Source: a virus. Taken from it: 64,000 bases of DNA. The stretch is from IMG/VR virus record IMGVR_UViG_3300039066_000010, one strand, 5' to 3'. Positions 1 through 41,786 of this stretch are shown here, in pieces. Within the stretch, counting starts at the first letter, position 1, and every line of letters starts with the position of its first letter. The notes under the pieces were generated by a model. That model saw only the letters and a list, made by a program, of their open reading frames with translations, ran no database searches and was not told where the DNA came from. The translations under genes were made by a program, and so were the position numbers.

Positions 1-48
1 GACATTTCCATTACAAAAGGAACGCTCTACCAACTGAGCTACTAAGGC
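1..48 (-). tRNA. tRNA-Thr (anticodon UGU), partial; truncated by window start
   Basis: Reverse complement gives acceptor GCCTTAG, D-arm GCTC/AGTTGGTAGA/GAGC, anticodon loop TTTGTAA (UGU); 3' half lies before position 1. Confidence 0.55.
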
Positions 49-51
49 TTG

Positions 52-516
52 TTAATTTCTTAAAATATAATTTAAAGTTCCTTTACTTGAAATATTAAAT
101 TTTTCCATTGTCTCTTTATAAGATTTATTAATAGAATGAAAATTTTGTATTTCATTTTTATCATATTTCTTCATAAAAGAACTAGCGTGAATAGATTTAA
201 CAAGTCTTAACTCTTTAGGTATATCTAACATATTATCAGATTGTGTACCAATCTTAATATTTTTACTAGAATTATCAGATTTAATGTTATTAACATGTCT
301 AACTACAATATCATCTTCAAATATTTTATCACCATGTTTCTGATAAGCTTGTAATCTATGACTTTTTAACTTTGTGTTTTTACCTGATATTCTTATAGTT
401 GTATAAACATAACCATTTGAATTAATACTTCCTATTTCTTTTTTAGAAGGATTAAGAAAAATACCTTTTTCTGTAACTCTGTATCCTCTTTCAAAAGCAA
501 TTTGTTCTATTTTCAT
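52..516 (-). CDS. HNH homing endonuclease (HNH_3-like)
   Basis: Motif VVRHVNNIKSDNSSKNIKIGTQSDN resembles H-x-N-x-N HNH_3 core of phage homing endonucleases; located inside tRNA array. Confidence 0.55.
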   Translation of the reverse strand: MKIEQIAFERGYRVTEKGIFLNPSKKEIGSINSNGYVYTTIRISGKNTKLKSHRLQAYQKHGDKIFEDDIVVRHVNNIKSDNSSKNIKIGTQSDNMLDIPKELRLVKSIHASSFMKKYDKNEIQNFHSINKSYKETMEKFNISSKGTLNYILRN

Positions 517-529
517 ACTTTAAAATCAG

Positions 530-603
530 CAGTACCGACGGAATTCGAATCCGCAATCTCCTCCGTGACAGGGAGGCAACATTCGCCAGTATGATGCGGT
601 ACT
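530..603 (-). tRNA. tRNA-Asp (GUC)
   Basis: Acceptor AGTACCG/CGGTACT, anticodon stem CCTCC/GGAGG, loop CTGTCAC, T-arm GCGGA-TTCGAAT-TCCGT. Confidence 0.7.
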
Positions 604-610
604 ATGTTTG

Positions 611-683
611 TAGCGGGGGTGGGATTCGAACCCACGACCTCAAGGATATGAACCTCACGAGCTGACCACTGCTCTACTCCGCT
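611..683 (-). tRNA. tRNA-Met/fMet/Ile2 (CAU)
   Basis: D-arm GAGC/AGTGGTCA/GCTC, anticodon loop TTCATAT (CAU), T-arm GTGGG-TTCGAAT-CCCAC. Confidence 0.65.
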
Positions 684-766
684 TAATTATTATGGTACAA
701 AGTTAATCAATAATTTAATACGTGTCAAGCATTTTACAAATTATTTTTAAAACTTTTTTCATTCGT

Positions 767-841
767 GCAGAAAGTGGGATTCGAACCCACGAAATCTTGA
801 TTGGAAGTCAAGTGCAATAGACCAAACTATGCGATTTCTGC
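767..841 (-). tRNA. tRNA-Gly (UCC)
   Basis: Acceptor GCAGAAA/TTTCTGC, anticodon stem CTTGA/TCAAG, loop CTTCCAA, T-arm GTGGG-TTCGAAT-CCCAC; enlarged D-loop. Confidence 0.65.
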
Positions 842-921
842 TGTTAAGGGGATTGTATTGTTTATTGTAACCTACGATTTACAATATGAAACTGTACATA
901 TTTTCTTAACTCCTCCCCTTG

Positions 922-995
922 TCGGTATAAATGGATTCGAACCACTCACCTTGGCAGTATCAGTGCCATGCTCTAACCAAATGAGCTATATACCG
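922..995 (-). tRNA. tRNA-Ile (GAU)
   Basis: Acceptor CGGTATA/TATACCG, D-arm GCTC/GAGC, anticodon stem TGGCA/TGCCA loop CTGATAC, T-loop TTCGAAT. Confidence 0.75.
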
Positions 996-1082
996 ATTAA
1001 ATAAACAAAGAATAGTACAGGTGTAATGAGTCTGGTAACTGTGACCTATCTCTGTTAGTCTGAGTTCATACTTGTTTATTTG

Positions 1083-1156
1083 TTCTCCCTGCAAGACTCG
1101 AACTTGCAATCCCTTCATTAAAAGTGAAGTGCTTTAACCAATTCAGCTAAAGGAGA
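1083..1156 (-). tRNA. tRNA-Lys (UUU)
   Basis: Acceptor TCTCCTT/AGGGAGA, anticodon stem CTTCA/TGAAG loop CTTTTAA, T-arm GCAAG-TTCGAGT-CTTGC. Confidence 0.75.
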
Positions 1157-1267
1157 ATGTGGTTAAGCAGCCTCGTCTTAACCTGTCGTCTTCTGGTTTA
1201 AAGGTTTTCATTCTGTTACCAGAACGCTCCGTGACGCTTATACCTTGAAACGTGAAAAGGCTTATCG

Positions 1268-1343
1268 TGGAGATGGTGAGATTCGAACTCACATCAGTCA
1301 GGTTGCAAACCTATCTCGCTACGCCTGAGAACATGCACCCCCA
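1268..1343 (-). pseudogene. tRNA-like remnant (canonical T-arm GTGAG-TTCGAAT-CTCAC but no matching 5' acceptor or anticodon arm)
   Basis: T-arm present at 1275-1291 (minus); expected 5' acceptor GGAGATG absent; putative anticodon region forms AGGTT-TGC-AACCT hairpin only. Confidence 0.3.
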
Positions 1344-1344
1344 A

Positions 1345-1379
1345 TAAAAAAGCCTCCAAGTTAATACAAGGAGGCTTTT
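1345..1379. terminator. Bidirectional intrinsic terminator-like hairpin (A-run, GCCTCC/GGAGGC stem, T-run)
   Basis: aaaaaaGCCTCCaagttaatacaaGGAGGCtttt seen directly. Confidence 0.4.
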
Positions 1380-1560
1380 GATATAATGATTGTTATCTAA
1401 ATAACTACATACCGATTCCTCCGGATGGTTTACCCCCGTCTTTAATATCCGCTATCGTAACAATTCTTTTCATCTGTGTTTTAATTTGGAGCAAAGATAA
1501 TGAAAAATATAATACCTTACAAATTTTCAGAGAAGAAAAACTTTAATTATTTTTATTTTG

Positions 1561-1633
1561 TCTCTCCGGATGGACTCGAACCACCAATCTTTCGGGTCGT
1601 ATCCGAGGGCTTTATCCATTCAGCTACGGAGAG
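1561..1633 (-). tRNA. tRNA-Arg (ACG)
   Basis: Acceptor CTCTCCG/CGGAGAG, anticodon loop ATACGAC (ACG), T-arm GGTGG-TTCGAGT-CCATC. Confidence 0.65.
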
Positions 1634-1637
1634 TTAG

Positions 1638-1720
1638 TACCGAGAGTGGGATTTGAACCCACAAAACCCCTGTTTCTAAGACAGGACACTCTACCAGCTT
1701 CGTTTTTACGTCACCTCGGC
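1638..1720 (-). tRNA. Atypical 83-nt tRNA-like gene with Leu-type anticodon loop CTTAGAA (UAG); ~9 extra nt in 5'/D region, short variable region
   Basis: T-arm GTGGG-TTCAAAT-CCCAC, anticodon stem CCTGT/ACAGG; acceptor pairing only found with GCCGAGG 83 nt upstream; not a canonical type II Leu. Confidence 0.3.
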
Positions 1721-1725
1721 TTTTG

Positions 1726-1795
1726 GGTGTTGCGGAGACTCGAACTCCATCAACTGAGTCACAATCAGTCTGCTTAACCATTAGCATAACAACAC
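1726..1795 (-). tRNA. tRNA-His (GUG)
   Basis: Acceptor GTGTTGT/GCAACAC, D-arm TGCT/AGCA, anticodon stem ACTGA/TCAGT loop TTGTGAC, T-loop TTCGAGT. Confidence 0.55.
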
Positions 1796-1797
1796 AG

Positions 1798-1869
1798 TTG
1801 GGATATAGAGACTCGAACTCCAACGAGATGGCTCAAAACCACCGATGCTAACCATTACATCATATCCCA
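1798..1869 (-). tRNA. tRNA-Gln (UUG)
   Basis: Acceptor TGGGATA/TATCCCA, D-arm ATGT/AATGGTTA/GCAT, anticodon stem GGTGG/CCATC loop TTTTGAG. Confidence 0.7.
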
Positions 1870-1927
1870 TTTTAAACATATAAGTCTTCTTTTTTATAAT
1901 CTTTTATATTCACAATAAAAATTTTAG

Positions 1928-2002
1928 TACTGCCTACGAGATTCGAACTCGCATTATCCACGTTGAAAGTGTGGTGTCCTATTCCAATTAGACGAAAGCA
2001 GC
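1928..2002 (-). tRNA. tRNA-Glu (UUC)
   Basis: D-arm GTCT/GGAC, anticodon loop CTTTCAA, T-arm GCGAG-TTCGAAT-CTCGT; acceptor with two G-U pairs. Confidence 0.6.
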
Positions 2003-2012
2003 TTTTAATTAG

Positions 2013-2082
2013 TTGGGGATGTAGGATTCGAACCTCGCCTCGCACGTCCAAGGTGCGGATGCTAACCATTACAACACATCCC
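2013..2082 (-). tRNA. tRNA-Pro (UGG)
   Basis: Acceptor GGGGATG/CATCCCC, anticodon stem CGCAC/GTGCG loop CTTGGAC, T-loop TTCGAAT. Confidence 0.7.
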
Positions 2083-2273
2083 CAAAATAAAAAAGACCCC
2101 ATATTACTATGAGGTCTAAAAATGAAATATAAATACGTTACAAACTTTAAGTTTGATTAGTATGTACACACTTAGCCTCAAAAACCATTTCCGGTTCTTG
2201 TTGTAAACGTTCGATATGTAGTACTAATCTTTTCATGGGTACAAAGTTATAAAATTTTTTAATACACTCCTAA

Positions 2274-3102: not shown

Positions 3103-4001
3103 GCTTTTGTAACATTTGTGATTTTACCTTTAGCTGTTGATGTCAGAGCTTCTAAAACAACCATGGTTTTCACCTTGTCTTTAGAATTATTATAAATCTC
3201 CAACAATTCAGCTTGTTCTTTCTCTCCGAATTTACCACCATTAAACAATTTAATGACTAATGGAATTTTCTCGATATCACTATCATCAACTAGAGAATGT
3301 ACAGGTTTCAAAACATCTTCAAATCTACACTTTCTAACGACGTTAGCAACGGTTAAAACATCCTTTTCACAATAAGTTATAATTCTGTCTAAACCTTCTT
3401 GACCTTCACTGTAATAAACTCTAGCTACGTCAGCCCCAGATATGTCATCTTTAGGCGATGGTAAACCAAGTGTTGAAGCAATAGCAATAAGCGAAGCTCC
3501 GTTAAAACCAGTTCCTTTCCATAACACATTCGTATCAATTAATGTATCTAAAACCTCCCATGGTTTCTTGTCAGATGTATCTAACATATCATGTGGTTGA
3601 ATACCGTTAGCAAGACATCTCCTTAACAAATAAGGGATGTCGAACCCAACTATAGCCTGACCACATAAAAGCGTCTTAGGATTCTTATCTGTAACTTTCT
3701 GAAGGTCTTCTGTAAATTCGATTAATAAATCTCTCTCTTCACCACTGTAAGATTTAAGATTTAATTCACCCCCTTTAATTCGACCTACTGAAATCACTAC
3801 AATCTTCCCGAACTCTGGGTAAAGAGCAGCTGTCTTACTGAATAATTCAGCAGCGTCTTCTTCATTTTTCCCATCTCGTTTTATTTTATAAACCCATGCG
3901 TCATATACAGGATGGTCTGGAGTCAGTTCTTCAACAATTCCAACCGTTTCAATGTCTATGAAGACAACGTTGTCTAAATTTAATCTTTTTAATGCTCTCA
4001 T
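3081..4001 (-). CDS. DnaQ-like DEDD 3'-5' exonuclease
   Basis: FIDIETVG (Exo I), later YCEKDV (Exo III Y-x3-D). Confidence 0.6.
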   Translation of the reverse strand: MRALKRLNLDNVVFIDIETVGIVEELTPDHPVYDAWVYKIKRDGKNEEDAAELFSKTAALYPEFGKIVVISVGRIKGGELNLKSYSGEERDLLIEFTEDLQKVTDKNPKTLLCGQAIVGFDIPYLLRRCLANGIQPHDMLDTSDKKPWEVLDTLIDTNVLWKGTGFNGASLIAIASTLGLPSPKDDISGADVARVYYSEGQEGLDRIITYCEKDVLTVANVVRKCRFEDVLKPVHSLVDDSDIEKIPLVIKLFNGGKFGEKEQAELLEIYNNSKDKVKTMVVLEALTSTAKGKITNVTKAWLKTIK

Positions 4002-4993
4002 TACGCTGTAGGTGTTACTAAATGTTTATACTTCGCTTCTGATTTTCTACTTCTACCAATACTTCCACAACTCTTACATCTAAATGCTTCGTAAATAGCT
4101 ACTGAAGTGTGATATTCCCCACCTCTCTCTAACTCTTCACTTGCACAAGTAGGGCAGCATTGAATATCCTCTGTAATATGTAACCCCATATTTGGATGAG
4201 GTTTGATAAATCTCCTAATTTTCAAGTAAACATCCTCTAAAAGTGTTACATCACCTTTATTGTAAGTCTCCATTTTAATTAGGGCATCAGTATCCCCTTT
4301 TACACATCGTTTCCAAAGGTCAAATCCTCCAGTCTCTGCTTTTCTACCTACGTTTAAAAACTCACCTAAATAATCTAACTTATTAGAGGAAACCGATAAT
4401 TGCTTACGAGCATGTTCCAAGGTATCGATTAATTTATAAGGCATTGGCTGAGGTAAATCGTGTTTCAAGAACCTTGTGTTAATTCTTTTAACATCGAACT
4501 TCTTACCATTATGAGCGATAATTACATCGGCTTCATTAATTAATTCCCATAGACTTTGAGTGATTCGTTTATCATCTTCCTCGACTGCCTCAATACTAGT
4601 AAGTCTATCTGACATAATCTCTGTCCCGAATAACCATTTAGCCGACCATGTTAACATGTACCAGTCTGACTGTAGCATCGCTAAGTTATGACCAATGTTC
4701 TGATTCCATAATCCCCAGATGTAAGCAGTTAAAGGAGCTGTCTCAATATCAAATAATAAAATCTTAGCTTGATGAGGAGGTTTTACAATTTCATGGTCTA
4801 CAACCACTATATGATTCACCCTGTCTCTGTATTTCCTAGACAATCCTAATCGTTTAGCCCACTTCCTAACTGTTCTGGCGTATACATCAAACTTTCTACC
4901 AACCATATCATAGATAACATTTTTGTTGGTTTGGGTAGTGTATACTTCCTTTATCCAAAGTTTATCCTCCGGTGTTAAATCTCTATACGTCAT
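4001..4993 (-). CDS. DEDD 3'-5' exonuclease with N-terminal HTH-like region and C-terminal Cys4 zinc ribbon
   Basis: LFDIETAP (Exo I), IIAHNGKKFD (Exo II), YNKGDVTLLEDVY (Exo III); CCPTC...CKSCG. Confidence 0.6.
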   Translation of the reverse strand: MTYRDLTPEDKLWIKEVYTTQTNKNVIYDMVGRKFDVYARTVRKWAKRLGLSRKYRDRVNHIVVVDHEIVKPPHQAKILLFDIETAPLTAYIWGLWNQNIGHNLAMLQSDWYMLTWSAKWLFGTEIMSDRLTSIEAVEEDDKRITQSLWELINEADVIIAHNGKKFDVKRINTRFLKHDLPQPMPYKLIDTLEHARKQLSVSSNKLDYLGEFLNVGRKAETGGFDLWKRCVKGDTDALIKMETYNKGDVTLLEDVYLKIRRFIKPHPNMGLHITEDIQCCPTCASEELERGGEYHTSVAIYEAFRCKSCGSIGRSRKSEAKYKHLVTPTA

Positions 4994-5139: not shown

Positions 5140-5592
5140 TTAGCTGCTTTTGCGTCCATATCCTTTATCTTTTAAGATTTTAATAACCTGCTCACAATCA
5201 ACCTTACTTTTCGGCATGAATAAAACTGGAGGTTTATCCCTTTTATTCATTAAGTCTTTGAACAATTTCCAAACAACTGGAAATCTTTCATTAGGTCTAC
5301 CTTTTACTTCAATCACAAAAGATTCATCAGGTGATACGAAATCCGGTGTGTAACGCATTGGTTGAGCTTTACGTTTATCGGACATCTCTGGGGAGTCTTT
5401 CCTTGTCCTCTCCCAGTTTTCCTCTTTGTAAGCAAAACCATCTACTAACACATAAACTTGTGATTCATAACCGGCTTCTATCCCTGACTCTTTTAGTAAT
5501 TTGTACATGGTAGATTCTAGGGTTGATGCGAAATTAATCCCATCGATTGTAATCTTTTTGGCGTTTACAATCATTTTACCTTTTTTCCTCAT
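5140..5592 (-). CDS. Phage PD-(D/E)XK-type endonuclease (DUF1064-like, FDS-x2-E family)
   Basis: IDGINFASTLESTMYKLL then YTPDF ... IEVKG pattern. Confidence 0.4.
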   Translation of the reverse strand: MRKKGKMIVNAKKITIDGINFASTLESTMYKLLKESGIEAGYESQVYVLVDGFAYKEENWERTRKDSPEMSDKRKAQPMRYTPDFVSPDESFVIEVKGRPNERFPVVWKLFKDLMNKRDKPPVLFMPKSKVDCEQVIKILKDKGYGRKSS

Positions 5593-5595
5593 TTA

Positions 5596-6531
5596 TTATT
5601 TGGTTTTAATGGTAGGTATTCCATATTTAGTTGTCAACCAATCTCGTTTATACATGTCGTACTGTCTTTGTGTTGGTAATTTATCAACACAGTATTTAAC
5701 ATAATTAGCCTCTTCCTTCTCTAGTTTGATTCTCTCCCTTTCCAATCTGGAGATATTCTCTAATCTTTCTAAAGTTCCGTCTATCTTATGTATGATTTTA
5801 TAACACTCGTCTATGTAATAATCATAATTGATATCATAATCTGATATGTCTTTCGGTACGAAGGTGTTGAAAATAGTAACAAGTTTTCCTGATTCAATCT
5901 CTATACTCCTGTCGTCTTTTAACTTCCTGAAAGTTCTACCATTTGTTGATATAAAATATCTGTTTGTTTTTTGTTCCGGTCTATGATTCTTTCCGACCCC
6001 TTCTTTAATATCTAAAGTTTCTGAAACCCATCCGTGTGAAGCATTGAATGTTTTACAGAAATCATAAATATTAGTGTGATTTCTAACAGTTTGTTCAACC
6101 GGAATGTTTTTAAGGAAGTAATCAGATACAGCCAAAGCAACAATTCCTTGAGAGAATGATTTATGATACTCCCCATCTTTAATCATTTCCTGATTAGATT
6201 TGAAAGTACCTTTGTATTTGACTTTACCATTAACTCCTACAGCGATGTAGTTATTAACATTTAATATTATCATTTTCTGATAAGCTACATACTCTAAAAC
6301 TAATCTCGTTCTAGCCTCCCATTCTTTACAAATCTCCCAGTATAATTTCTTATATTTTATTGGGATTCGAACAGTTAAACCATCCGTATTGATTTGTAAC
6401 ATTTTTAAATCCGGTACTCTAGTCATTAACATTTCAGACAACATACATAAAGCTAATTGTCCAGCTAATGTTGTTTTCAAAGTGTATAACGGGTCGTATA
6501 AAAAACTGTACTCTGAGTTTGATTTTCCATA
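5596..6531 (-). CDS. Family B DNA polymerase, exon 3 (motif B tail YGK, motif C INTDG, KxY region)
   Basis: In-frame upstream extension of track ORF reads RYGKSNSEYSFLYDPLYTLKTTLAGQ; LQINTDGLTV matches PolB motif C (DTD). Confidence 0.55.
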   Translation of the reverse strand, partial: YGKSNSEYSFLYDPLYTLKTTLAGQLALCMLSEMLMTRVPDLKMLQINTDGLTVRIPIKYKKLYWEICKEWEARTRLVLEYVAYQKMIILNVNNYIAVGVNGKVKYKGTFKSNQEMIKDGEYHKSFSQGIVALAVSDYFLKNIPVEQTVRNHTNIYDFCKTFNASHGWVSETLDIKEGVGKNHRPEQKTNRYFISTNGRTFRKLKDDRSIEIESGKLVTIFNTFVPKDISDYDINYDYYIDECYKIIHKIDGTLERLENISRLERERIKLEKEEANYVKYCVDKLPTQRQYDMYKRDWLTTKYGIPTIKTK

Positions 6532-6532
6532 T

Positions 6533-7556
6533 CTTTATTTGTTATCTTGTAAGCTCTTTATCTCACAACTCTGCATTTTATTTTGTTATATGCAGTTCAG
6601 ACTATATCATCATCTTTCGATGTCGGACGCTCGTGTCGAGTTTATTGTTTACGCTACTCACTCATTAGTCGTTGAACCTTCTAGTTACTTATTGCGTTTC
6701 ACTAGCTTGGCTGCTGATTGTCCACTTCTGGAGTTTCCAGCAATTCATCCAATTTTAATTCGGCATATTTGAAAATCAAACCTTTGTAGGTTTTACCTGT
6801 TTTACAACTCTTGTTAATATTACAACTCATTAACATTTTATAAGGAATACCTAGTCTATCACTACTAAATCTACTTTTAATGGGTAATTCATTTTCTGAG
6901 GTTAATGACCACTCTTCTAAGTCTTTACTTGATTCCCAAGTACCTAATAACACCTTATCTAAAGAGTAAACGCTTATTTTTGGGCTATTTAATCTACTTC
7001 TTTTAGAAGTGTTTTTATGAGCCTGTTTTAGTTCATCGCTTATTGTCTTAGGTACTTTTAAATAAGAGTAATCATGTTTTTCTTTAGTCAATCCCTTATT
7101 CCAAGTTCTCCTCCCATAAAATGTAGATTTTAATTCTCCTCTTGTGTATCTATCTTTTAATGTTTTAGCTCTCTTAATTATAGTTTCTTTAGATAAATTA
7201 GGTGTACCAGAAGCTAAAGGGTTTATATTAAATAAATTATCAGTGTTATCTAAATAAATTTGTTCACGGTTTAACACTTGTTCTTTATCTTCTACAATCT
7301 CTAAAATGTTTATTTTAAATTTATCTTCACCGTGTTTATTATAACTTCTTTGTAAATGAGAATTTTTATGTTTGTTGTTTCTCAACATACAAATGTGATG
7401 ATTCAATCTTTTTTTAAACGATTGAGTAGTAGAACCTATATATCTTTTATTAGATTCTGTACAAACTATTTCATACACTCCTATTTTATCTAAATCTTTC
7501 AAGTTATTCAGCATATTATCTTTATTTTTACACAAAGATAATAAAAATATTAATTT
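6533..7556 (-). mobile_element. Group I-like intron 2 in polB (interrupts motif B) carrying GIY-YIG homing endonuclease ORF
   Basis: 5' exon ends in T (…TCGGT|), intron ends in G, joining gives KLSANSV|YG = KxxxNSxYG; ORF-free structured 3' segment 6533-6701 shares blocks with intron 1 core. Confidence 0.55.
6702..7535 (-). CDS. GIY-YIG homing endonuclease (intron-encoded) with C-terminal NUMOD-like DNA-binding region
   Basis: GVYEIVCTESNKRYIGSTT...RLNHH classic GIY-x10-YIG...R...H. Confidence 0.8.
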   Translation of the reverse strand: MCKNKDNMLNNLKDLDKIGVYEIVCTESNKRYIGSTTQSFKKRLNHHICMLRNNKHKNSHLQRSYNKHGEDKFKINILEIVEDKEQVLNREQIYLDNTDNLFNINPLASGTPNLSKETIIKRAKTLKDRYTRGELKSTFYGRRTWNKGLTKEKHDYSYLKVPKTISDELKQAHKNTSKRSRLNSPKISVYSLDKVLLGTWESSKDLEEWSLTSENELPIKSRFSSDRLGIPYKMLMSCNINKSCKTGKTYKGLIFKYAELKLDELLETPEVDNQQPS

Positions 7557-7789
7557 ACCGAATTTGCTGATAACTTGAAACCGTCAGCCATTACTTTATC
7601 ACCTTCTTTCTTAGCTTTTAAACGAGGGATTACAATTCCATTTTCATAAATAGAAGAAAACTCTTCCCCTAAATGTTCTGGGTAAAGACCTAATGTTATA
7701 GCTAAACTTGGATATAAACTTGCGACGTCTGCGTCGACAATGATATATTCCTCGTCTGATTTATACACTCCTTCTTTGATACAACCATG
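7557..7789 (-). CDS. Family B DNA polymerase, exon 2 (motif A DxxSLYPS and start of motif B)
   Basis: IIVDADVASLYPS (motif A) and FKLSANSV (motif B first half); in-frame upstream extension beyond track start (GTG) to a stop near 7790. Confidence 0.55.
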
Positions 7790-8888
7790 TCATTTGTTAT
7801 CGTAACGGTTTTTTATCCATTACTTCTTATAATTTATTATCTTATAAGTTCGGCATACATTTTCATCTGAAATTCAGATGTCGAACACTCGTGGGGAGAT
7901 TATTGATTCCATAACTCTCACTCCCTATGCTCTACGATACTAACTGGTCTCATTAGTTATCTCGGTATTGAATTAAAAAAATTTAGCTTTTTTTCTAGAT
8001 AGGTAATAATTAGAGTCTTTATATAGATAGTCAAATATTTTTTGTCTTGATTCATAACCTAGATTTATCATCAACCTGTAATATTCCATTTTATTACAGT
8101 CTGTTCTTAATCTACTAGTTGTTCCCAATTCGTTAAATATACTTTCTATTTCTTGCATAAACGGTTTACTTGTAGAAACAAATTTAATTTCTGATTTAGT
8201 CACACATCCGTCTCCATCTAAGAAACCCCTTATGAAATCTCTTATTAAATGCGAAGGTATTTTGTCTAAAATTGTAAATTGTAAGTCTTGTGTTTTATTA
8301 GGTGTGACTCCTAATCTTAGTAAATCGTCTGCTATTTGCTGAGATGAAAACTTAAAAATAATAGTATTTTTACGTGTTATCGAATCCGTCGATTTATTAA
8401 TTGTTTTTAAAACAAATTCTGGAATTATAGAATCTCTAATCAACTCTATTACTTCCAAGTCATCTATATTATTACAAAAACTTATTCTTTGTTGTCTATT
8501 TCCTTTTTTACAGGAAATGTTACCGTCTGCTACTAAAAACCCTAATATATAACTCTTCAGTTCGGAGTTTATGTTTTCAAAGAAATCATGATTAATATAA
8601 TATGTGAAATTTTTTCTTATTTCTACTTTGAAAAAATTCGTAATATCTGATAATCTTTTTTCTGGAATATTTAACTCTTCACTGATTTTTCTTAAGTTAC
8701 ACCCTTTATTCGCTAATTCTTTTATTTTGTCAATTGTATCGGGTTGTAAGTATTTCTTAAATTTCATATCTCTAATTTTATTCAAAGATAATTAAAAAAT
8801 CCACACGTTCCATTTTTTTAATTGACTCAAATATCTTCTACCGATATTGCTCGATTTATTACCTATTTGTCACCAAATAGGAGGACAC
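7790..8888 (-). mobile_element. Group I-like intron 1 in polB (between YxGG and motif A) carrying LAGLIDADG homing endonuclease ORF; boundaries approximate
   Basis: Exon 1 ends FEYGGFTFDLGTGG (YxGG), exon 2 resumes (IKEG)VYKSDEEYIIVDADVASLYPS; spacing to motif A matches PolB only if ~1.1 kb removed; ORF-free 7769-7972 segment homologous to intron 2 3' segment (gatgtcgRacRctcgtg, actcactc, cattagt). Confidence 0.45.
7973..8785 (-). CDS. LAGLIDADG homing endonuclease (double-motif)
   Basis: LGFLVADGNIS and RGFLDGDGCV motifs ~100 aa apart; TTG start. Confidence 0.8.
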   Translation of the reverse strand: MNKIRDMKFKKYLQPDTIDKIKELANKGCNLRKISEELNIPEKRLSDITNFFKVEIRKNFTYYINHDFFENINSELKSYILGFLVADGNISCKKGNRQQRISFCNNIDDLEVIELIRDSIIPEFVLKTINKSTDSITRKNTIIFKFSSQQIADDLLRLGVTPNKTQDLQFTILDKIPSHLIRDFIRGFLDGDGCVTKSEIKFVSTSKPFMQEIESIFNELGTTSRLRTDCNKMEYYRLMINLGYESRQKIFDYLYKDSNYYLSRKKAKFF

Positions 8889-9769
8889 TATTCTATCCCA
8901 CCTGTACCAAGGTCGAAGGTAAAACCTCCATATTCAAAACTGTACTTAAACGATTCCTTTAACGTGTCTACCTTAATTCCTTTAAGATAAGACAATAACT
9001 CATTGAACTCAGATGTTTTAAAATCGATGTAATCCGGAATACATTCTGCAAAGTTAAAAACCTTTCTGTGTGTCCTCCTTCTTTTAACGACTGCTTCTTT
9101 CTGACTAGTGTGATGACAATAAAGTCTTAACATTAATGATTCCCCAATCTTACTATCTGAAAAATTTAAACAATTCAATCCGTATTGTTGTAACAATCCT
9201 TTTCTAAGTTCTAATTTCTCTTCAGTTAATTTATAAAAATCAAAAGTAGCGTTAACATCATTCTCGTTGTAATCTAGAATCTCACCAACTTGTTCGATGT
9301 TTGTAATTTCCTCATCATGTTTGTACGGCATATCTTGAACGTTAGGGAAGTTCATCGCTATCTCTAGCTTTTTTAAACTTGTCATCCTAGCTCTATTGTC
9401 AAAATGCCAGATTTTAAATAAATCTAATTGTGGGATAATTACTTCGTCCTCTCTAATTGCTGAAAACTCTTCTTTTATTGTTTCTTGTGCGACTTCGTAA
9501 ATGAAGCTCACAATTTCTTGGGTTGTTTGAGATAATAAAATAGCTCTGTTTACAATCATCCTGTGTAAAACAGGATAGTCAAAATTAATGTTGTTAAAAC
9601 CAATTTGACCTTTGCATAACTCTAGGTGGTCTAATAATTCAGGGAGCTGATTAACATCTCCCCAAATTACGAACTTGACAACCTCTAATGTATCTCTGTT
9701 TTTAGCAGTATATGTAAAACAATTTTTCAATGTCTCAATATCATACACCCAAACTTGTTTGTTCTCCAT
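8888..9769 (-). CDS. Family B DNA polymerase, exon 1 (N-terminal 3'-5' exonuclease domain plus YxGG)
   Basis: VYDIETL (Exo I), FNNINFDYPVL (Exo II), YNENDVNATFDFY (Exo III), FEYGGFTF (YxGG). Confidence 0.65.
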   Translation of the reverse strand: MENKQVWVYDIETLKNCFTYTAKNRDTLEVVKFVIWGDVNQLPELLDHLELCKGQIGFNNINFDYPVLHRMIVNRAILLSQTTQEIVSFIYEVAQETIKEEFSAIREDEVIIPQLDLFKIWHFDNRARMTSLKKLEIAMNFPNVQDMPYKHDEEITNIEQVGEILDYNENDVNATFDFYKLTEEKLELRKGLLQQYGLNCLNFSDSKIGESLMLRLYCHHTSQKEAVVKRRRTHRKVFNFAECIPDYIDFKTSEFNELLSYLKGIKVDTLKESFKYSFEYGGFTFDLGTGGIE

Positions 9770-9788
9770 TAATTCTGACTTGTTTTAA

Positions 9789-11351
9789 TTAATAACTTGC
9801 TATAACACAATCAGTAGTTAATATTGTTCCGGCTACAGATGAAGCACTCTCTAAAGCAACTCTTGTTACTTTCTTAGGGTCAATAATACCCTTTTCATAC
9901 ATGTTAACCAAACTCCTAGATACCACATCATATCCAATATCCATATTATCATTGTTCTCTACTAAATAAAGTGCTACTTCACCATTCTCTCCACCATTCT
10001 CTACAATTGTAATAAGTGGTGAATTTAAAGCTTTCCTAACGATTTGTATCCCTAATCTTTCATCGAAGTTATCACTATCATCAGTGATGGCTACAGCAGC
10101 TCTGATTAAAGCAGCTCCACCCCCAATAACAACACCTTCTGAAACAGCTGCTTTAACTGCAGCAACAGCGTCATCAACCCTGTCTTTCTTCTCTTTCATT
10201 TCGATGTCTGTAAAAGCCCCAACTTTAATAACAGCAATACCACCGGTTAATCGAGCAATACGTTCTTTAGCGTATTTGTCCTTCTTACTAAGTTCCTCTA
10301 AACCAGTGATATATGTTTTCAAATCTTCCTCGTCAACATCACCTTCGATAATCATTGTCTGAAGTGAATCTGAAACTACTTTCTCAGCATACCCTAAATC
10401 TTGAATCAATACTGTTTCTAATGACCCTCCAGCCTTAGCTGAAATTACATTTGCTCCAGTTGCAACAGCGATGTCACTAAGTGTCTCTCTGTTTAATTCC
10501 CCGAAGTTAGGAGTTTTGATAGCATTTACTTTTAAAAACCCCCTGACTTTATTAGCGGCTAAAGTATGTAGAACTTCAGGCTCGTAATCATTAGCGATGA
10601 TTAAAATAGCTCTACCTTGTTGACCAATTTCTGTCAATATAGGTGAAAGCTCTCTAAATGAAACAATTTTATCATCGTATAATAAGATGTAAGGTTTCTC
10701 TAATATCGCCTCTTTAGTTGACTCAGACGTGATGAAGTGATGTAAAGCGTAACCTCTTTCGATTTTAACACCTTCTACAATCTCTGAATAAGTCTCTTGA
10801 GTTTCTGATGTCTCAACTGTAACCATTCCTTTTTCCCCAACTGTAGAGAAAGCTGTAGAAACTAATTCTCCTATCACTTCATCACCATTGGCTGAAATTG
10901 TTGCCACTTGTTTTAACAATCCACTCTTAATACTCACTTCTTTAGACATAATGTCCAATTGCTCTACGACCTGTGCTACGGCTTTATCAATCCCACGTTT
11001 TAAATCGATAGGATTTGCTCCAGCAGTAACATACTTATGTCCTTCACTAACCATGGCTTGAGCTAAAACTGTAGCGGTTGTTGTTCCATCACCAGCATCT
11101 TTAGCAGCTTTAATTGAGGCTTCCCTCACCATATCAACTCCTAATTGCTCAATGATATCGACAGTGTCAACGTTTTCAGCAACTGTAACCCCATCCTTAG
11201 TGGCATGAGCTTTCCCATCTTTACCTCGAATCACTACGAATCGTCCTTTAGCACCTAAAGTGGTTTTAACAGCGTTACATAAAAAATCTACCCCGTTCTT
11301 TAAGGACTCTCTGGCTTTATCTTTAAAAGCTATTTCTTTTTGACTACTCAT
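9789..11351 (-). CDS. groEL: GroEL-like chaperonin (Cpn60) without C-terminal GGM tail
   Basis: AKDAGDGTTTATVLAQAMV and overall GroEL-length 520 aa with equatorial/apical motif pattern. Confidence 0.9.
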   Translation of the reverse strand: MSSQKEIAFKDKARESLKNGVDFLCNAVKTTLGAKGRFVVIRGKDGKAHATKDGVTVAENVDTVDIIEQLGVDMVREASIKAAKDAGDGTTTATVLAQAMVSEGHKYVTAGANPIDLKRGIDKAVAQVVEQLDIMSKEVSIKSGLLKQVATISANGDEVIGELVSTAFSTVGEKGMVTVETSETQETYSEIVEGVKIERGYALHHFITSESTKEAILEKPYILLYDDKIVSFRELSPILTEIGQQGRAILIIANDYEPEVLHTLAANKVRGFLKVNAIKTPNFGELNRETLSDIAVATGANVISAKAGGSLETVLIQDLGYAEKVVSDSLQTMIIEGDVDEEDLKTYITGLEELSKKDKYAKERIARLTGGIAVIKVGAFTDIEMKEKKDRVDDAVAAVKAAVSEGVVIGGGAALIRAAVAITDDSDNFDERLGIQIVRKALNSPLITIVENGGENGEVALYLVENNDNMDIGYDVVSRSLVNMYEKGIIDPKKVTRVALESASSVAGTILTTDCVIASY

Positions 11352-24197: not shown

Positions 24198-24247
24198 CTG
24201 AAAATTATTTGTGTATTACTCATAACTTAAAATTTTAAATTAATAGT

Positions 24248-24329
24248 GAGGGAGACAGGATTCGAACCTGTAATCCCAATGATATTGTAACCGTACATGT
24301 ATGGACTCGAACCATATACCACTCCCTCG
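24248..24329 (-). ncRNA. tRNA-like element with perfect acceptor (GAGGGAG/CTCCCTC), canonical T-arm and a second T-arm-like hairpin in D position; no canonical anticodon arm
   Basis: Minus-strand: GAGGGAG-TG-GTATATGGTTCGAGTCCATAC-...-ACAGG-TTCGAAT-CCTGT-CTCCCTC. Confidence 0.4.
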
Positions 24330-36750: not shown

Positions 36751-36829
36751 AGGAGTATTGAGCAATTGGTGGCTCAGCGGTCTGTAAAATCGTGGTGAAA
36801 ACATGTGGGTTCGAGTCCCTCTACTCCTA
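36751..36829 (+). tRNA. tRNA-Tyr (GUA), long variable arm
   Basis: Acceptor AGGAGTA/TACTCCT, D-arm GAGC/GCTC, anticodon loop CTGTAAA, 11-nt variable arm, T-loop TTCGAGT. Confidence 0.7.
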
Positions 36830-36834
36830 CAACA

Positions 36835-36923
36835 TAGAAAGTGAAGCAGTCCATTGGTGGGCGACTGGTCTTGAAAATCAGGTCTCGTTAAATCGGGCGG
36901 GGTTCGACTCCTCCTCTTTCTAC
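36835..36923 (+). tRNA. tRNA-Ser (UGA), type II
   Basis: Acceptor TAGAAAG/CTTTCTA, anticodon loop CTTGAAA, long variable arm CTCG-TTAAAT-CGGG, T-loop TTCGACT; close to E. coli Ser(UGA) layout. Confidence 0.65.
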
Positions 36924-36927
36924 AATT

Positions 36928-37014
36928 AGAAAAGTGTCAGAGTGGCTGATTGAGCATCCCTGCTAAGGATGTGGGGTATAAACACTCCCGTGGGTTCGAA
37001 TCCCACCTTTTCTG
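36928..37014 (+). tRNA. tRNA-Ser (GCU), type II
   Basis: Acceptor AGAAAAG/CTTTTCT, anticodon stem CATCC/GGATG loop CTGCTAA, long variable arm, T-arm GTGGG-TTCGAAT-CCCAC. Confidence 0.65.
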
Positions 37015-37019
37015 CAAAA

Positions 37020-37093
37020 TGCTTTGTCGTAATAATGGTTTAATACGTCCGACTGTTAATCGGGTTATAAGGGTTCAAATCCCTTCAAAGCAG
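37020..37093 (+). tRNA. tRNA-Asn (GUU)
   Basis: Acceptor TGCTTTG/CAAAGCA, anticodon stem TCCGA/TCGGG loop CTGTTAA, T-arm AAGGG-TTCAAAT-CCCTT. Confidence 0.6.
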
Positions 37094-37098
37094 CAAAT

Positions 37099-37169
37099 AC
37101 GTCAGTAGTGTAACGGTAACACGATGGTCTCCAAAACCATTAATAAAAGTTCGAACCTTTTCTGATGTG
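37099..37169 (+). tRNA. tRNA-Trp (CCA)
   Basis: Acceptor ACGTCAG/CTGATGT, D-arm GTGT/ACAC, anticodon stem ATGGT/ACCAT loop CTCCAAA, T-arm AAAAG-TTCGAAC-CTTTT. Confidence 0.7.
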
Positions 37170-37216
37170 CAAACAATAGATTTTATTTATATACCTATAG
37201 ACAAAATCTATTATAT

Positions 37217-37290
37217 GGGGATGAAGCTAACTTTGGTAGAAGCGGTAGTCTGAAAAGCTACAGGAGTTGGTTCAAATCCAACTATCCCCA
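37217..37290 (+). tRNA. tRNA-Phe (GAA)
   Basis: Acceptor GGGGATG/TATCCCC, anticodon stem GTAGT/GCTAC loop CTGAAAA, T-arm GTTGG-TTCAAAT-CCAAC. Confidence 0.7.
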
Positions 37291-37295
37291 CAACT

Positions 37296-37376
37296 GCTCT
37301 TATGTCCGAGAGGTTAGGTGGACGCTTGCAACCCGTCCCACACAGGTTCGAATCCTGTTAAGAGTTCAAAAACATA
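37296..37376 (+). tRNA. tRNA with irregular anticodon arm (possible Cys GCA; GGACG/CGTCC stem would give 9-nt loop CTTGCAACC)
   Basis: Acceptor GCTCTTA/TAAGAGT, T-arm ACAGG-TTCGAAT-CCTGT, Ser-like D region TCCGAGAGGTTAGG. Confidence 0.4.
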
Positions 37377-41760: not shown

Positions 41761-41786
41761 ATTATTATCTTTGCAAAGATAATAAT
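41761..41786. promoter_or_regulatory. 24-bp perfect palindrome TTATTATCTTTGCAAAGATAATAA containing TATCTTTG on both strands (candidate bidirectional promoter/operator)
   Basis: Seen directly; TAnnTTTG on plus ~27 nt before ATG 41800, mirror copy on minus before 41743 gene. Confidence 0.5.

Follow-up and report, generated by a model that had tools for sequence, protein, structure and literature searches.

The minus strand of the IMG/VR virus record IMGVR_UViG_3300039066_000010 (the window, meaning the whole stretch of 64,000 nucleotides [nt] that was analyzed) raises the question of whether five open reading frames (ORFs) that follow one another between positions 5596 and 9769 are separate genes or the parts of one. 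Three of them carry pieces of a family-B DNA polymerase (PolB; 8888-9769, 7550-7768 or 7557-7790, and 5596-6480 or 5596-6532), and the two that lie between these encode homing endonucleases of the LAGLIDADG (7973-8785) and GIY-YIG (6702-7535) families, followed by 182 nt (7972-7791) and 169 nt (6701-6533) of ORF-free sequence, respectively. An earlier note on this DNA had read the locus as a polymerase gene split by two group I-like introns, and the five ORFs and both ORF-free segments were found on the minus strand where it had placed them. We regard it as very probable that the locus forms a single gene, encoding a divergent family-B DNA polymerase and interrupted by two related group I introns that each carry a homing endonuclease, and we divide it as follows.

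8895-9769, minus strand: exon 1 of the PolB gene, 875 nt, with the Exo I, II, and III motifs and GxGG; 3' end ...GGTGGGAT.
7791-8894, minus strand: intron 1, 1,104 nt, predicted group I type, starting AGAAUAG... and ending ...GAUAACAAAUG, with its terminal G (omega-G) at 7791.
7557-7790, minus strand: exon 2 of the PolB gene, 234 nt (78 codons), with HGCIKEG...DADVASLYPS (motif A)...KLSANSV (first half of motif B); end ...AATTCGGT.
6533-7556, minus strand: intron 2, 1,024 nt, group I (IA-like), with R/S elements GGUUCAACGACUA and GAUAUAGUCU and omega-G at 6533.
5596-6532, minus strand: exon 3 of the PolB gene, 937 nt including the stop codon, with YGKSNSEY (second half of motif B), motif C QINTDG, and the thumb/C-terminal region.

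Joining the three exons (9769-8895, 7790-7557, and 6532-5596) gives 2,046 nt in frame, encoding 681 amino acids (aa). Each intron interrupts a codon after its second base, at I292 for intron 1 and V370 for intron 2; the last base of both 5' exons is U, the last base of both introns is G, and a stop codon stands in frame no more than two codons past each 5' splice site. The predicted ligated junctions read GGTGGGAT/ACATGGTT (GGGAU/ACAUGG) and AATTCGGT/ATATGGAA (UUCGGU/AUAUGG), where the slash marks the join. The junction that the earlier note had derived for intron 2 holds in full: the exon ends in ...AATTCGGT at 7557, the intron-final G is at 6533, and removal of the intron restores KLSANSV/YGKSNSEY, motif B existing only in the spliced form. 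The same note had put intron 1 between YxGG and motif A with its boundaries left open; these, set by colinearity with homologs plus the U/G rule, are now 8894-7791. The YxGG motif that it had seen next to this intron needs revision, as the EYGG there is not conserved (the family consensus is EYNG) and the invariant motif at this point is G288-x-G290-G291-x-H293.

Comparison with uninterrupted genes supports both junctions. The spliced protein gives one continuous match to phrog_1252 "DNA polymerase" (residues 2-624; E value, 1e-155), and in tblastn searches it aligns in one piece with uninterrupted genes of many Vibrio phages; its BLASTP alignment with the uninterrupted protein of Vibrio phage 13VV501A is gap-free at GGI/HG and NSV/YG. 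Two IMG/VR contigs, L004 (71% identity) and L005 (67%), read without interruption through FDLGTGGIHGCIKEGVY and FKLSANSVYGKSNSEYSFLYDPLYT, the intronless counterpart sites in L004 being GGTACTGGTGGAATCCACGGATGTATC and TCTGCCAATAGTGTTTACGGTAAATCG, and more than 120 full-length uninterrupted homologs with 61 to 72% identity cover 98 to 100% of the spliced protein. With the spliced ORF gap-free at both junctions against uninterrupted homologs, the earlier judgment that the gene is not a pseudogene stands. Nor is the split arrangement an assembly artifact, because independent assemblies carry it: a Logan contig from SRR1974496 encodes the identical exon-1 protein and then the LAGLIDADG, 72-aa, GIY-YIG, and exon-3 ORFs in the same order, and a 3.3-kb contig from JGI 3300040993 encodes the same exon-1 protein and then the LAGLIDADG ORF, after which the contig ends.

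The family classification of the polymerase was drawn from its predicted fold, because searches of Pfam (DNA_pol_B and DNA_pol_B_exo1 included) found no family for the spliced protein at an E value of ≤0.01 and PDB sequence searches with phmmer and with a 44-sequence profile found no match; the match to phrog_262 was weak. An AlphaFold model built on an alignment (A1) reached a predicted local distance difference test score (pLDDT) of 90 and a predicted template modeling score (pTM) of 0.82, and the top 50 Foldseek matches in the PDB were all family-B polymerases (Tgo, KOD, 9N, Pfu, and Pol alpha; E value, ~4e-14; probability, 1.0), with alignments of ~730 columns and, for this multidomain protein, a template modeling score of ~0.47. 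Among 44 homologs, the invariant positions include D10 and E12 of Exo I; N59, F63, and D64 of Exo II; Y167 and D171 of Exo III; D311, S316, Y318, and P319 of motif A (DADVASLYPS); and K364, N368, and G372 of motif B (KLSANSVYG). Motif C is QINTDG, not DTDS, and its N418, T419, D420, and G421 are likewise invariant; Asn takes the place of the first Asp, while the second, the catalytic one according to work on RB69, is kept. Judged from the model, the spliced product is a predicted family-B DNA polymerase of a divergent clade beyond the reach of the sequence models that were tried, and the assignment to family B made in the earlier note is upheld by the uniformly family-B fold matches and the invariant catalytic motif residues.

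Intron 2 is a group I intron. Rfam RF00028 (Intron_gpI) matched it at 65.2 bits (gathering threshold, 50; E value, 2e-15) over 6571-6804 on the minus strand and model positions 1-253, in a 4.6-kb scan run in E-value mode, which bears out the group I-like character first proposed for it; a scan of the whole 64-kb window at the gathering threshold with default filters returned tRNAs only, intron 2 having been lost to the speed filters. A second covariance model, R1, was built from six foreign cores of the intron-1 type, with zero window sequence, and scored intron 2 at 61.4 bits (E value, 3e-15; 6533-6758) over the full model length, ending exactly at 6533. In P1, the end of exon 2, AAUUCGGU, pairs with the guide GCCGAAUU (6764-6757) over 8 bp, with U.G at the splice site. 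The core is laid out as follows.

6533-6764, minus strand: intron 2 ribozyme core, with the internal guide sequence (IGS) GCCGAAUU at 6764-6757, P3 at 6752-6746, P4 at 6742-6737, P4' at 6717-6712, and P6 at 6711-6676.
Same core (6533-6764, minus strand), continued: P7 GACUA at 6670-6666, P3' at 6629-6623, P8, P7' UAGUC at 6604-6600, and P9 at 6595-6571.

Intron 1, whose core is divided by the LAGLIDADG ORF, appears from structure, covariation, and homology to intron 2 to be a well-supported group I-type intron, with the following predicted elements.

8812-8886, minus strand: 5' core of intron 1, with IGS/P1' GUCCU at 8886-8882, the P2 hairpin at 8881-8862, P3 UCGAGCA at 8854-8848, P4 UCGGUA at 8844-8839, and P5 AAUUAAAAAAAU at 8823-8812.
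7791-7982, minus strand: 3' core of intron 1, with P5' at 7982-7971, P4' at 7967-7962, P6 at 7957-7939, P7 GCAUA at 7930-7926, and P7.1 at 7925-7894.
Same 3' core (7791-7982, minus strand), continued: P3' at 7887-7881, P8 at 7880-7864, P7' UAUGC at 7857-7853, P9, P9.1 at 7823-7802, and omega-G at 7791.

All the helices expected of intron 1 were found by hand (P1 GGGAU with GUCCU, P3 UCGAGCA with UGUUCGA, P4 UCGGUA with UACCGA, and P7 GCAUA with UAUGC); P5, of 12 bp, closes the loop that holds the ORF, and omega-G comes after the family-conserved GAUAACAAA. Without its ORF, the intron 1 RNA has a folding energy of -70.9 kcal/mol (z = -4.5), and its minimum free energy structure recovers P1, P2, P4, P5, P6, P8, P9, and P9.1, with P3 replaced by an alternative pairing. 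A blastn search with the ORF-less intron found relatives of its 3' half, at ~70% identity, in 71 phage records, and RNAalifold predicted 31 pairs in the 3' halves, 19 of them with compensatory changes; P7 covaries among GCAUA with UAUGC, GCGUA with UACGC, and GACUA with UAGUC. When eight ORF-less cores were scored over 43 pairs, the P3/P7 pseudoknot included, 95.6% of 338 cells were paired compared with 30 to 45% in slid controls, the scored structure having come from intron 1 itself, which favors it over those controls. Long-range P3 was paired in 100% of these cores, compensatory changes occurred in 25 of the 43 pairs, and 0 of 500 shuffles reached the observed values; P6 covaries by eye, its alignment being too poor for it to be counted in the pair statistics. 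R1 scored intron 1 at 137 bits (7788-8005). The complete set from P1 to P9.1, the covariation, and the scoring of both window introns by R1 are thus in favor of the earlier description of intron 1 as group I-like, RF00028 itself being negative.

The two intron types are related, because R1, made from foreign cores of the intron-1 type, detects the Rfam-validated intron 2. Of the ordered sequence blocks that the earlier note had seen in both ORF-free segments, gatgtcgRacRctcgtg corresponds to P3'/P8 and actcactc to the start of P7.1, but cattagt is nonhomologous, falling in the 5' strand of P7 in intron 2 and the 5' strand of P6 in intron 1. The note had also spoken of two independent invasions, which is plausible insofar as the endonuclease families and the ORF positions differ; the two ribozyme cores, however, are related to each other. 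Neither the intron cores nor the endonucleases recur elsewhere in the 64-kb window.

Records with an intron-1-type core extend across phages of Bacillota, Bacteroidota, Actinomycetota, and Cyanobacteria (71 records), and in the annotated ones that were examined the core match lies inside a gene that an endonuclease ORF divides, the gene product being a RecD-like helicase in Bacillus phage PJN02, a DNA polymerase in Alicyclobacillus phage MMB025, and an ATPase in the crAss-like cr6_1. These three, with Clostridioides difficile phage phiCDKH02, bajarodcaudo virus 2, and Staphylococcus PG-2021_67, made up a set of six loci (L138 to L143). Several relatives have a homolog of the LAGLIDADG ORF directly upstream of the matching segment. 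The position of the ORF varies: loop L5 holds it in the window, in MMB025, and in phiCDKH02, whereas PJN02 and cr6_1 have it ahead of P3, their P3 and P4 strands, located by motif search, being 3' of the ORF. Staphylococcus PG-2021_67 and bajarodcaudo virus 2 have an unbroken core from P3 to P9, and no ORF could be found in either. That homologous LAGLIDADG ORFs occupy L5 of this chassis in the window and MMB025 but a site before P3 in cr6_1 would imply that the ORF relocated repeatedly or invaded independently. RF00028 gave no group I match in six intron-1-type loci or in the contiguous PJN02 core alone. We propose tentatively, and at slightly less than even chances, that the intron-1 type is a distinct and widespread phage group I lineage, marked by P7 GCRUA with UAYGC, a single P7.1 hairpin, and a GAUAACAAA-G 3' end, and invisible to RF00028 even if contiguous; if this is true, Rfam-based censuses of phage introns would undercount systematically. 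A pattern scan of viral contigs for CACGAGNGTNCGACATC returned 101 loci, near the chance number estimated for a collection of that size, and was not used.

The two endonuclease ORFs and the promoter-like motifs that precede them are as follows.

7973-8767, minus strand: LAGLIDADG homing endonuclease ORF, 264 aa from the ATG at 8767 (to the TTG at 8785 in the ORF list), in the P5 loop of intron 1.
6702-7514, minus strand: GIY-YIG homing endonuclease ORF, 270 aa from the ATG at 7514 (to the TTG at 7535 in the ORF list), upstream of P3 in intron 2.
8783-8791, minus strand: promoter-like TTATCTTTG, 15 nt upstream of the LAGLIDADG ATG.
7533-7541, minus strand: promoter-like TTATCTTTG, 18 nt upstream of the GIY-YIG ATG, in a 9-bp hairpin of AUUAUCUUU and AAAGAUAAU.

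The LAGLIDADG ORF matches Pfam LAGLIDADG_3 (PF14528; E value, 6e-15; residues 181-241) and the endonuclease family phrog_4645 (E value, 4e-45), and it carries two LAGLIDADG-like motifs, LGFLVADGN and FIRGFLDGDG. The GIY-YIG ORF matches PF01541 (E value, 4e-12; residues 18-100) and phrog_314/7168 "homing endonuclease" (residues 15-178); its final ~60 nt overlap the IGS, P3, P4, P5, and P4' and enter P6. The ATG-start lengths of 264 and 270 aa agree with gene calls in independent contigs. TTATCTTTG occurs nine times in the window, where ~1.6 copies would be expected from base composition; the copies are mostly intergenic, and at least nine sites of the TTATCTTTG or TATCTTTG form have an ATG ~15 to 35 nt downstream. 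The TAnnTTTG form is that of the Bacteroidota -7 promoter box. Its recurrence suggests a host of the Bacteroidota type, and TTATCTTTG may function as a promoter from which the endonucleases would be transcribed independently of the polymerase. Elsewhere in the window, at 41765-41782, 56440, 63487, 36287, and 37394 on the plus strand and at 1500 on the minus strand, TTATCTTTG or TATCTTTG stands upstream of an ATG, usually after a T-rich run, and a divergent palindromic pair, TTATCTTTGCAAAGATAA, is found at 41765-41782.

We suggest that the locus works as follows. Intron 1 occupies the invariant GxGG-I/H motif, between the exonuclease and palm domains, and intron 2 the interior of motif B (NSV/YG), and each would fold after transcription into a ribozyme with helices P1 to P9. 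Pairing of the last base of the 5' exon, a U, with a G of the IGS would form part of P1, free guanosine bound in P7 would attack the splice site, and the terminal omega-G would then replace this guanosine, leading to ligation of the exons. Once both introns have been spliced out, the 681-aa ORF would result, with all catalytic motifs rebuilt. The endonucleases, whose activity and targets are predicted, would cut intronless polymerase alleles of coinfecting relatives at these conserved motifs, and the intron would be copied in (homing).

Several points weigh against this reading. No near-identical intronless allele was found (the closest is at ~72% aa identity), so that any recent mobility is hypothetical. 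In intron 2, a second, weaker 7-bp guide, GCUGAAU at 7512-7506 (AUGCUGAAU), overlaps the GIY-YIG start codon, and the P1/P2 architecture is ambiguous. Between this guide and the one just before P3 (6757-6764, minus strand; AUGCCGAAUU) there is a 10/11-nt similarity, which is within chance expectation, and the repeat AUAUGCYGAAU around the GIY-YIG ORF, considered as an insertion footprint, was rejected as not significant. The P1 of intron 1 (GGGAU with GUCCU, 8886-8882) is short, with 2 of its 5 bp being G.U, and the structure scored for covariation has an advantage over the slid controls for the reason given above. RF00028 gave no match to intron 1 at an E value of ≤10, so that its assignment to group I depends on its structure, its covariation, and its relation to intron 2; we attribute the silence of RF00028 to a limit of the model and not to decay, because the cores of contiguous relatives are missed too.

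The same observations could be read as those of an intron 1 that has decayed or depends on a protein, its LAGLIDADG product serving as a maturase, so that the gene would be nonfunctional or conditionally functional with intron 2 active. LAGLIDADG proteins are able to act as maturases, and the absence of an RF00028 match, the weak P1 (5 bp, 2 of them G.U), and the 890-nt insertion in L5 all agree with such a state. We nevertheless consider it unlikely: all core helices are intact and fit the family covariation on a par with foreign members, the residues of the exon motifs are all intact, two independent samples have kept the identical sequence, and the failure of Rfam covers the whole intron-1-type family, contiguous cores included. 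If, instead, free-standing endonuclease genes had been inserted into the polymerase gene, the three pieces would be translated separately and would assemble noncovalently, as happens with some genes of T4-like phages into which endonucleases have inserted. Gene callers do divide the polymerase into ORFs of 293, 72, and at least 276 aa, and incidental GTG/TTG starts are present in exons 2 and 3, but no ATG stands at the boundaries of these exons, and translation from the incidental starts would remove conserved residues (HGCIKEG; YGKSNSEYSFLYDPLYTL). Such pieces would, moreover, sever motif B within KxxxNSxYG, whereas the U/omega-G junctions restore the frame exactly and ribozyme cores with Rfam or covariation support lie in both gaps, and we judge an arrangement of this kind very improbable.

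LAGLIDADG domains occur in inteins too, and Brevibacillus phage Jenst has a relative of the LAGLIDADG ORF with the annotation "intein-containing," which might recommend an intein reading of the insertions. Against it, stops stand in frame two codons past the exon ends, the endonuclease ORFs are separate and have their own starts, and the Pfam matches included no intein (Hint-type) family; a pseudogene disrupted by mobile elements is likewise at odds with fully conserved exons. Both readings are ruled out by the reading frames, and we give them a negligible probability.

A single polymerase gene with two group I introns, the reading that we prefer, changes the annotation of the locus: five separately called ORFs, three without a Pfam domain and two endonucleases, would become one essential replication gene and two mobile introns, and the same correction applies to deposited Flavobacterium phage genomes with a two-CDS (coding sequence) polymerase. 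As to method, whole-contig Rfam scans can silently lose phage group I introns, a 65-bit intron having been dropped by filters and the intron-1 type being unseen. As to biology, the insertion sites GGI/HG and motif B are added to the motif A site of relatives in a poorly characterized, Pfam-invisible PolB clade. Homing endonucleases prefer conserved motifs, as is textbook knowledge (PMC3984707), and the motif-located insertion sites fit the known preference of these enzymes for catalytic motifs.

Around the polymerase gene, a 520-aa GroEL/Cpn60-like chaperonin ORF lies immediately upstream (9789-11351, minus strand; PF00118 on the identical gene in contig L144), and further upstream of the chaperonin gene L144 has one that matches Prim-Pol weakly. 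Downstream (4001-4993 and 5140-5592, both minus strand) are a DUF1064 protein with a weak match to phage endonuclease I and a 330-aa RNase_H_2/DNA_pol_B_exo2 protein, which is exonuclease-like and has its own DIET motif. Of the sixteen tRNA genes in the window, the majority fall into two clusters (locations: 1-2083, minus strand; 24247-24328, minus strand; 36751-37366, plus strand). The phage is uncultivated, and its host is probably in the Bacteroidota (Flavobacteriia).

Among known phages, the Flavobacterium psychrophilum phages FpV21, Fpv1, and FPSV (Fipvunavirus) have the same polymerase family and an intron-2-type core with a GIY-YIG ORF behind TTATCTTTG. They differ in having a single intron, located at motif A (DIDV/AGYYPS) and not at GGI/HG or motif B, and in that their ORF comes after P7, whereas that of window intron 2 comes before P3; in their records the gene is annotated as two "putative DNA polymerase" CDS, and the intron is unannotated. 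In FpV21 (L003; KT876726.1), the intron-2-type group I intron was recognized by eye at 9353-10298 on the minus strand, with the 5' splice site after GATGT and the 3' site after AAAAAAG; Rfam gave no group I match in this polymerase intron region (a 6.5-kb stretch). When FpV21 and stretched polymerase loci were scanned in a 62-kb batch, the sole Rfam match, at 82 bits, was to an ORF-less intron at motif A (DADV/..YPN) in IMGVR_UViG_3300043408_000053 (L032; 6080-6377). FpV21 has a second locus (4584-4789, minus strand) that is 82% identical to the core of window intron 2 over 128 nt and scores 32.6 bits with R1, followed immediately by a GIY-YIG ORF (4000-4587, minus strand); this may be a free-standing endonuclease beside an ORF-less intron, as in collaborative homing, or an ORF in a 3' loop.

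Resemblances to phage introns of subgroup IA2, of the T4 td/Twort type, are the R/S elements of intron 2, CAACGACUA ... GAUAUAGUCUGAAC, an additional P7.1 hairpin, P9 followed by P9.1 in the tail, an A-rich stretch ahead of the terminal omega-G, and a putative separate promoter for the endonuclease; the intron-1 type differs in its P7 (GCAUA with UAUGC) and in being invisible to RF00028. The phrog_17 polymerases of Bacillus phages belong to family A. In Bacillus phages (SPO1, Bastille, and other Bastillevirinae), the DNA polymerase gene may be interrupted by as few as one or as many as three group I introns, endonucleases of different families (HNH, GIY-YIG, and LAGLIDADG) may occur in one gene, and Rfam matches are partial or absent where an ORF loop splits the ribozyme (PMC11878797). 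Our locus resembles these genes in its multiple group I introns, mixed endonuclease families, and ORF-split cores with partial Rfam matches or none, but their polymerases are of phrog_17, their hosts are Bacillus, and their endonucleases are mostly HNH (PMC11878797), in contrast to the phrog_1252 family-B polymerase and probable Bacteroidota host here. In Shewanella phage KASIA, a polymerase intron has been verified by reverse transcription-PCR (PMC8541194).

In crAss-like phages of the Delta and Zeta groups, group I introns occur in the genes for PolB, the major capsid protein, primase, and ATPase (Yutin et al. 2021; PMC7886860). Those phages share with ours a host in the Bacteroidota (a probable one in our case) and a PolB gene with group I introns and LAGLIDADG-type ORFs, and cr6_1 holds an intron-1-type core with a LAGLIDADG homolog, as in the window; they are of another phage lineage, and their introns were identified by protein domains and not by ribozyme structure (PMC7886860). 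Phage polymerase genes that contain several group I introns with endonucleases of different kinds, and group I introns in the PolB of Bacteroidota phages, are thus already published, and the locus described here is an ordinary, well-supported example of a known phage phenomenon that leaves current understanding unchanged.

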